DNA of 18,039 nt from a virus (IMGVR_UViG_2693429706_000001), one strand, 5' to 3'; positions 17,012-17,509 are shown, numbered from the stretch's first letter. Made by a program: numbers and translations. Notes: a model not told the origin generated them from the sequence alone.

Positions 17012-17509
17012 CTACATCTGATATTTTTTATCTCTTAAAGATTCATAAATCCGTTGACAAGTCACTCCTGCGATGTAGCGTTTGTCAGCAATTTCAGCAT
17101 AAAGCTGAGCTTCTGCTGCAATATCTCCGAGCATGTTGGTGAGCATTCCTTCGGCGGCTTTGGTTGTTTTGCCTCTGACGGCAGCGGCAAGATTTGCGGT
17201 ATGCTGCGCTGCGTCAAGGCGTATGGCATATTTTGTTGCTTCGGCACGCAGCTGGTTAACACTATCAGACAGATCAGCAGCCCTGGCAGAAATTTCAGCG
17301 GCTTTCTGTTGTGCATCTTTAACAGCCTCATCACGGGATATAGTTCGCCCCTGTTCAATTATTCGAGCAGCAAATTGGACATTTACCTCTTGAGATAATT
17401 CGGCAGCATCACGCTCCGCCCATTTTTTTTGCCATCCTCTGTCGCTCCAGACATTACCTACGACAAATCCTACCAACACGAGCAAAATCACCGTGAATAT
17501 CTGATTCAC
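17012..17509 (-). CDS. i-spanin (Rz-like inner-membrane spanin)
   Basis: 165-aa ORF with an N-terminal transmembrane segment ([18 protein letters not shown]) followed by a charged, Ala/Gln-rich coiled-coil; its ATG overlaps the endolysin stop (ATGA); it contains an embedded lipoprotein ORF in another frame. Confidence 0.8.
17062..17316 (-). CDS. o-spanin (Rz1-like outer-membrane lipoprotein), embedded in the +1 frame of Rz
   Basis: [23 protein letters not shown]|VPKQQ... has a signal peptide with lipobox LTSC, then a Pro-rich mature region ([23 protein letters not shown]) with Cys residues; lies wholly inside the Rz reading frame, the classic embedded arrangement. Start codon choice is uncertain. 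Confidence 0.65.

Follow-up and report, generated by a model that had tools for sequence, protein, structure and literature searches.

A probable embedded two-component spanin, orthologous to rzpQ/rzoQ, among the lysis genes of a lambda-like prophage

The DNA analysed, hereafter the window, is a scaffold of 18,039 nucleotides of viral origin (IMGVR_UViG_2693429706_000001). It holds a lambda-like prophage on the minus strand, comprising tail, head, portal and terminase genes, an accessory cluster, the pair rzpQ/rzoQ and the endolysin gene rrrQ. The features of the lysis region and its immediate neighbour, given in the direction of the genes, are the following.

17506..18039, minus strand: rrrQ orthologue, encoding an endolysin (phage lysozyme) of 177 residues (Pfam Phage_lysozyme, 5.3e-25; PHROG 7 endolysin, 8.6e-63)
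17517..17522, minus strand: GGGGGA, a Shine-Dalgarno-like sequence for rzpQ read from the sequence, 7 nt 5′ of the GTG and within the 3′ end of rrrQ
17012..17509, minus strand: rzpQ orthologue, encoding a probable Rz-type i-spanin of 165 residues, with a GTG start (open reading frame listing)
17444..17500, minus strand: predicted N-terminal transmembrane segment of RzpQ, residues 4–22 (Kyte-Doolittle 19-residue maximum of 2.34)
17326..17329, minus strand: GAGG, Shine-Dalgarno sequence of rzoQ, 9 nt 5′ of the ATG at 17316, with the same spacing in 24/25 homologues
17062..17316, minus strand: rzoQ orthologue, encoding a probable o-spanin precursor of 84 residues, wholly inside rzpQ in the +1 frame
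17248..17316, minus strand: predicted type II (lipoprotein) signal of RzoQ, residues 1–22 plus Cys23 (PROSITE PS51257-type pattern)
17248–17259, minus strand: predicted lipobox L-T-S-C of RzoQ, matched by the same PROSITE PS51257-type pattern
17057..17059, minus strand: codon of Cys151, the sole periplasmic cysteine of RzpQ, invariant in 25/25 homologues
16436–16651, minus strand: gene of a cold-shock protein, called cspI in relatives (CSD, 1.7e-31)

The outer gene, rzpQ, is tightly linked to rrrQ. The stop codon of rrrQ overlaps the start codon of rzpQ in the 4-nt sequence GTGA, and the ATG of rrrQ occupies the last three positions of the window. A simple scan of the minus strand around rzpQ and rzoQ for promoters and terminators found none. 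RzpQ matches the Pfam family DUF2514 (PF10721) at 1.9e-38 with 132.5 bits, for a gathering cut-off of 26, and PHROG 312, 'Rz-like spanin', at 3e-58. At E ≤ 0.01, DUF2514 is the only Pfam family matched, apart from a sub-threshold hit to HAUS6_N. The search of NCBIfam returned no match for either RzpQ or RzoQ.

The N-terminal segment is the single hydrophobic segment of RzpQ on the Kyte-Doolittle scale, as the best 19-residue window outside residues 1–30 reaches only 0.61. An AlphaFold2 model, which was computed from the single sequence and is only indicative (pLDDT 65), is all-helical. It consists of a membrane helix (residues 4–21) followed by helices 24–56, 59–110 and 117–163, with a break or linker at residues 111–116. 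RzpQ is accordingly predicted to resemble type II membrane proteins, with helices and a linker in its periplasmic domain. The single N-terminal transmembrane domain and the mostly helical periplasmic part with a linker that characterize i-spanins are thus both predicted. In the i-spanin of phage N15, gp55, helices make up 79% of the protein and one coiled coil spans residues 72–122 (Kongari et al. 2018 tables, PMC6139136).

The reading frame of rzoQ is shifted by +1 with respect to that of rzpQ, since (17509 − 17316) mod 3 = 1. The open +1 stretch extends over 17062–17358 on the minus strand, which amounts to 98 residues when counted from a TTG and to 84 from the ATG at 17316. The criteria for an embedded two-component spanin were those of Summer et al. 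2007 and Kongari et al. 2018. The embedded architecture, with the o-spanin gene lying fully within the i-spanin gene in another frame, is found here. With L the length of the outer gene, rzoQ spans 0.39 L to 0.90 L of rzpQ; about 70% of embedded spanins run from 0.4–0.5 L to 0.9–1 L (Kongari et al. 2018, PMC6139136).

The precursor of RzoQ starts with a basic n-region (R4/K5) followed by a hydrophobic core of 11 residues with a Kyte-Doolittle value of 2.97. The residue at position +2 of the lipobox cysteine is Val; Ala, Ser, Asn, Leu or Val is found there in the homologues, and Asp in 0/25. Val rather than Asp at +2 agrees with the signal of a lipoprotein sorted to the outer membrane. The signal of type SPII, the lipobox cysteine and a +2 residue other than Asp, which define an o-spanin, are all recognized by pattern rule, acylation being putative. 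The mature part consists of 62 residues, nine of which are prolines (14.5%), without a penta-proline stretch. Cysteines are found at precursor positions 23, 58 and 62. A single-sequence model of modest confidence (pLDDT 62) is disordered over residues 23–61 and helical over residues 62–82. In order, the signal of RzoQ is succeeded by a proline-rich linker, an invariant C-x-P-T-C motif and the predicted C-terminal helix. RzoQ matches PHROG 11621, 'Rz-like spanin', at 2.1e-8, and a Pfam search at E ≤ 0.01 matched no family.

These features fully bear out the initial annotation of the region 17012–17509, which had described an Rz-like gene with a transmembrane N-terminus (now supported by DUF2514, PHROG 312 and residues 4–22), a nested +1 frame with the lipobox LTSC (Cys23, PROSITE-type pattern), and a proline-rich mature region containing cysteines (nine prolines in 62 residues and two cysteines besides the lipobox one).

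Spanins are expected to contain at least one periplasmic cysteine for intermolecular disulfides. C151 of RzpQ, and C58 and C62 of RzoQ, are candidates for this role and are conserved in 25/25 sequences. At least one such cysteine is found in 507/528 spanin systems (Kongari et al. 2018, PMC6139136).

The gene order holin, endolysin, Rz is observed in Escherichia coli prophages, in phage 2H10 and in N15. A holin gene, essQ or essD, lies upstream in the matching genomes and phages; in the window this position is beyond the end. The spanin pair thus adjoins an endolysin gene in the window itself and a holin gene as judged from the matching genomes, as members of a lysis cassette do. Phage 2H10 displays the same cassette order and has the same accessory cluster after the spanin. 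In the window, this accessory ('moron') cluster (15500–16651, minus strand) comes after the lysis genes, on their downstream side, and contains counterparts of gnsB, ynfN and ynfQ/ymcF in addition to cspI. The N-terminus of RrrQ is hydrophobic over 24 residues, which suggests, from sequence, that the endolysin may be exported, with this segment acting as a signal or signal-anchor-release sequence, instead of escaping via holin holes.

Many E. coli chromosomes carry this region at about 99.9% identity, with the outer gene named rzpQ and the lysozyme gene rrrQ. In K-12 MG1655, the annotation includes rzpQ (b1553, 1639030–1639527) and a nested rzoQ (b4689, 1639080–1639334, 'putative lipoprotein RzoQ'), within a region labelled 'cryptic prophage Qin'. 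The K-12 and window pairs have equal product lengths (165 and 84 residues), the same +1 embedding and the same 50-nt offset between the stop codons. The two rzpQ genes align without gap, with 29 substitutions in 498 nt, and the RzoQ products are identical at 80/84 residues. Three of the four differences are in the n-region of the signal peptide, and one is at mature residue 6. The neighbours also correspond, with rrrQ upstream and cspI downstream, and the two regions are collinear from gnsB to rrrQ with 92.6% nucleotide identity over 2451 nt. Collinear identity, neighbours and nested geometry together place the window pair in the orthologue group of b1553/b4689. A difference is that Qin is a remnant in K-12, whereas the window prophage keeps terminase, portal, capsid and tail genes. 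Comparison with annotated Rz/Rz1 pairs, which the initial annotation had proposed as a check, yields K-12 orthologues of identical geometry as well as, in N15, a homologue published as an embedded pair.

N15 is listed with an embedded two-component spanin belonging to singleton families in Table S1 of Kongari et al. 2018 (PMC6139136). RzpQ is 57% identical to N15 gp55 over 158 residues (BLASTP, E = 1e-56), and RzoQ is 63% identical to the N15 o-spanin over 63 residues (E = 4e-24). [quoted passage not shown] The gene of the N15 o-spanin (43677..43931, unannotated) is embedded in the +1 frame of gp55, from 0.42 L to 0.89 L. Its product shares with RzoQ the precursor length of 84 residues, the mature length of 62 residues, Cys23 and a C-S-P-T-C motif, and its gene shares the GAGG. 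N15 gp55 differs from RzpQ in its length of 181 residues, with longer N- and C-termini, and the N15 prophage is a linear plasmid, unlike integrated lambdoid prophages. Closer relatives of RzpQ are found in the phages 2H10 and PhiR63_1, whose Rz is 100% identical over residues 21–165, and in HannyBb (99.3%).

The region 17012–17509 on the minus strand is very probably an embedded two-component spanin, orthologous to rzpQ/rzoQ and belonging to the N15 gp55/o-spanin family, whose two genes close the lysis cassette in a lambda-like prophage. The matches to PHROG 312 and PHROG 11621, the lysis cassette, and the K-12 and N15 pairs support the embedded i-spanin/o-spanin pair that had been called from the DNA at the outset.

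The nested +1 frame could in principle be open by chance and encode no protein, RzpQ being alone or having an unlinked partner. The absence of a Pfam or NCBIfam match for RzoQ and the omission of rzoQ from most genome annotations would fit such a situation. The expected frequency of a chance frame was estimated by synonymous resampling with the Rz protein held fixed. In 5000 trials, a +1 frame of at least 84 codons arose in 6% and a lipoprotein-like frame in 1%, a null model that is weak on its own because two thirds of the nested sequence are already determined once the Rz protein is held constant.

Homologous loci were therefore compared. Two sets were gathered: the first, with a single genome for each species, came to 27 loci, and the second to 80 IMG/VR loci. 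The IMG/VR scan gave 99%-identical copies only, and it served for the count of intact copies and not for divergence. The 84-residue nested frame is intact in 77/77 of the close IMG/VR copies that could be anchored, with three single-residue variants only. The codon alignment comprised 25 sequences: the window, N15 and 23 enterobacterial loci with Rz identities of 54–99%. The genera represented are Escherichia, Shigella, Citrobacter, Kluyvera, Pseudocitrobacter, Izhakiella, Mixta, Erwinia and Pantoea. The nested frame is open and free of indels in 25/25, down to 54% Rz identity, and it measures exactly 84 codons in 23/25; the other two have lost the stop codon and run to 93. An interruption of the nested frame in close homologues, which had been named beforehand as the observation that would speak against the pair, was thus encountered neither in the close nor in the diverged copies.

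Variability at the third codon positions of Rz depends on the overlap. The nucleotide diversity at these positions is 0.45 upstream and 0.55 downstream, and drops to 0.19 in the part overlapping mature RzoQ. Variable third positions amount to 69/74 outside the overlap and 40/62 inside (Fisher p = 3e-5), and all three codon positions are constrained within the mature-RzoQ overlap. Over the overlap, the mean pairwise amino acid identity among the 25 sequences is equal in both frames (Rz, 0.73; Rz1, 0.72). Across the same stretch, nine stop codons interrupt the +2 frame. Cys23, Cys58 and Cys62 of RzoQ, like Cys151 of RzpQ, are invariant in 25/25. The alignment also reveals an invariant core in RzoQ of 15 residues followed by x-P-T-C, and a motif SE-LQ-KL-ML.

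A chance frame is highly improbable in view of these data: the frame stays open in diverged and close copies alike, the wobble freedom of Rz is lost exactly over the overlap, the lipobox cysteine, the two other cysteines, the ATG and the GAGG are conserved, and the +2 frame of the same stretch is closed. The comparative evidence is decisive and indicates, at the level of sequence, that both overlapping frames are conserved under purifying selection.

The opposite strand also carries open frames across the overlap, at 17054–17398 (plus strand, 114 residues) and 17133–17393 (plus strand, 86 residues), and the nested minus-strand frame might be the shadow of a gene encoded by one of them. The 114-residue frame starts with a TTG, however, and neither frame has a recognizable signal or is annotated in K-12, in the genomes annotated with PGAP or in the phages examined. 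The minus strand encodes all the neighbouring genes, and the conserved pattern of lipobox, Shine-Dalgarno sequence and ATG is that of the minus strand. Where two sense frames both lack stop codons, long antisense frames are to be expected as a side effect. The two plus-strand frames most likely arose in this way and were rejected as real genes, the probability of a plus-strand gene being negligible.

Few exceptions were found among the homologues. In Mixta tenebrionis (L024), the lipobox reads L-T-N-C, with Asn at position −1; it is missed by the strict pattern, and the frame is otherwise intact in the codon alignment. The stop codon of Rz1 is lost in Kluyvera ascorbata (L008) and in locus L022, where the mature part is extended to 71 residues. 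In Citrobacter amalonaticus (L028), both genes are truncated together, and this is the sole decayed copy found. A further locus (L004) is on a 22.9-kb contig deposited as 'MAG: Veillonella parvula' (JAGZPX010000007.1). Its rzpQ and rzoQ products differ from those of K-12 only at residue 2 of RzoQ, and its Rz is 90% identical to the RzpQ of the window. In all likelihood, this contig stems from an E. coli prophage and was wrongly binned with the Veillonella genome.

The start codon of rzoQ had been left uncertain initially, between the ATG at 17316 and ATGs upstream. In 13/25 homologues, the ATG equivalent to that at 17316 is the sole possible start, because a stop codon is found one codon upstream. 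An alternative upstream ATG at 17331 overlaps the GAGG. In K-12 rzoQ and in the N15 o-spanin (Kongari entry), the start is at the equivalent ATG, and in N15 the GAGG is marked as the Shine-Dalgarno sequence in Table S1 of Kongari et al. 2018 (PMC6139136). Both the Shine-Dalgarno sequence and the ATG of rzoQ are written in the RzpQ codons for RDEAVK(D/N), of which RDEAVK is invariant in the Rz alignment. The upstream stops and the conserved spacing of the GAGG settle the predicted start of rzoQ at the ATG at 17316.

The organization is that of lambda Rz/Rz1, where Rz1 (46186–46368) lies wholly inside Rz (45966–46427) in the +1 frame, and both pairs are placed after an endolysin gene. By analogy, both would have the same topology, in which an inner-membrane protein of type II, its periplasmic part made of two helical segments and a linker, is paired with an outer-membrane lipoprotein. 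A cysteine is found close to the C-terminus in both i-spanins, C151 in RzpQ and C152 in lambda Rz, the latter forming an intermolecular disulfide (PMC6139136). In contrast, no similarity in sequence was detected: BLASTP of RzpQ and RzoQ against lambda Rz and Rz1 gave non-significant E-values of 1.4 and 1.0, and no lambda-type Rz or Rz1 model of Pfam was matched at E ≤ 0.01. The labels 'Rz1-like' and 'rzpD/rzoD-like' first given to the pair are consequently adequate for architecture and role and not for sequence.

The o-spanins differ further. The mature part has 62 residues in RzoQ and 40 in lambda Rz1, and RzoQ contains two non-lipid cysteines instead of one. With 14.5% proline, RzoQ lacks a penta-proline run, and its model has a predicted C-terminal helix. 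The penta-proline stretch is a mutationally sensitive element of lambda Rz1. In the lambda family, embedded o-spanins have diverged more than i-spanins (Kongari et al. 2018, PMC6139136), unlike the equal conservation of both frames in the 25-sequence alignment of the rzpQ/rzoQ family. The pair is, by this architectural comparison, a presumed functional analogue of lambda Rz/Rz1 that belongs to the N15/Qin family, outside the lambda sequence families.

A mechanism can be proposed on the model of lambda Rz/Rz1 (Berry et al., as summarised in PMC6139136; PMC5295617). RzpQ would be anchored in the inner membrane and RzoQ in the outer membrane, and their C-terminal parts may bind each other across the periplasm. 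Homotypic disulfides, formed in a Dsb-dependent manner, would stabilize the RzpQ-RzoQ complex covalently. After removal of the peptidoglycan mesh by the holin and the endolysin RrrQ, the complex is presumed to collapse and thereby to bring about fusion of the inner with the outer membrane, as the last step of lysis. The mechanism is transferred by architectural analogy because RzpQ and RzoQ have no similarity to lambda Rz and Rz1 and RzoQ has no match in Pfam or NCBIfam. In the literature on rzoQ, rzpQ and DUF2514, where papers with a single mention were judged by their listing, no lysis phenotype, lipid labelling or complex formation was found.

Some features could point to another mode of action: the missing penta-proline, an invariant 14-residue segment, the C-x-P-T-C motif, the C-terminal helix predicted by the model, and the equal constraint on both frames. 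The N15/Qin-type spanin might accordingly be a mechanistic variant and not a simple analogue of the lambda pair, and its intact retention in the otherwise decayed Qin of K-12 could reflect a role serving the host, such as controlled lysis or vesicle release; this is considered unlikely.

It is also conceivable that the pair is a spanin by descent and an unexpressed relic of a defective prophage in the window, without present function, as in K-12 Qin. The K-12 region is labelled cryptic, a gene of the ydfR family in the same lysis cassette is a pseudogene in the closest complete genome, and next to the tail genes the window, a scaffold, shows an IS1 end and a run of N. Yet rzpQ and rzoQ are both intact, and the head, tail and terminase module of the window looks complete. 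The deposited phages 2H10 and PhiR63_1 carry the Rz that is identical over residues 21–165, and purifying selection is apparent among the copies of E. coli, Shigella and other enterobacteria. A relic is very unlikely on these grounds. As Qin is cryptic in K-12, expression of rzpQ/rzoQ in any given strain is not assured.

The embedded spanin is a known one, through the curated K-12 genes and the published spanin census; it is real, conserved and ordinary. Its weight as a discovery is little, with a curated pair in K-12 and an N15 homologue in a published census, and its practical value concerns annotation. That gene callers would miss the nested frame had been anticipated, and this is what is observed. 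In E. coli genomes annotated with PGAP, only rzpQ is annotated and not the nested rzoQ, and the RefSeq record of N15 and the record of 2H10 are without the nested gene. An 'i-spanin | o-spanin' pair is shown under the match in only 1/40 of the phage records listed. Calls of the exact 84-residue RzoQ product number 115 contigs and those of the Rz product at least 1000, so that the nested product is called about ten times less often, each time under the name 'hypothetical protein'. Comparison of the homologues fixes the start codon of rzoQ. It also removes the 'singleton' status of the N15 family, which is widespread in prophages of the Enterobacterales.

At the other end of the window, a run of 10 N (1310–1319) follows about 60 bases that match an IS1 end (1250–1319; 'IS1 family transposase' in the matching genomes). 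An IS1 copy is therefore the point at which this scaffold was joined, which leaves the adjacency of the host flank (1–1250) to the tail genes (about 1320 onwards) uncertain. The host flank contains an open reading frame of 251 residues (1–756, plus strand) with the lipoprotein signal LLLAGC, the product of which presumably resembles the LysM/M23 lipoprotein YgeR. It also contains a tRNA-Gly(CCC) at 835–908 on the plus strand, and ygeQ is annotated nearby in the matching genomes.
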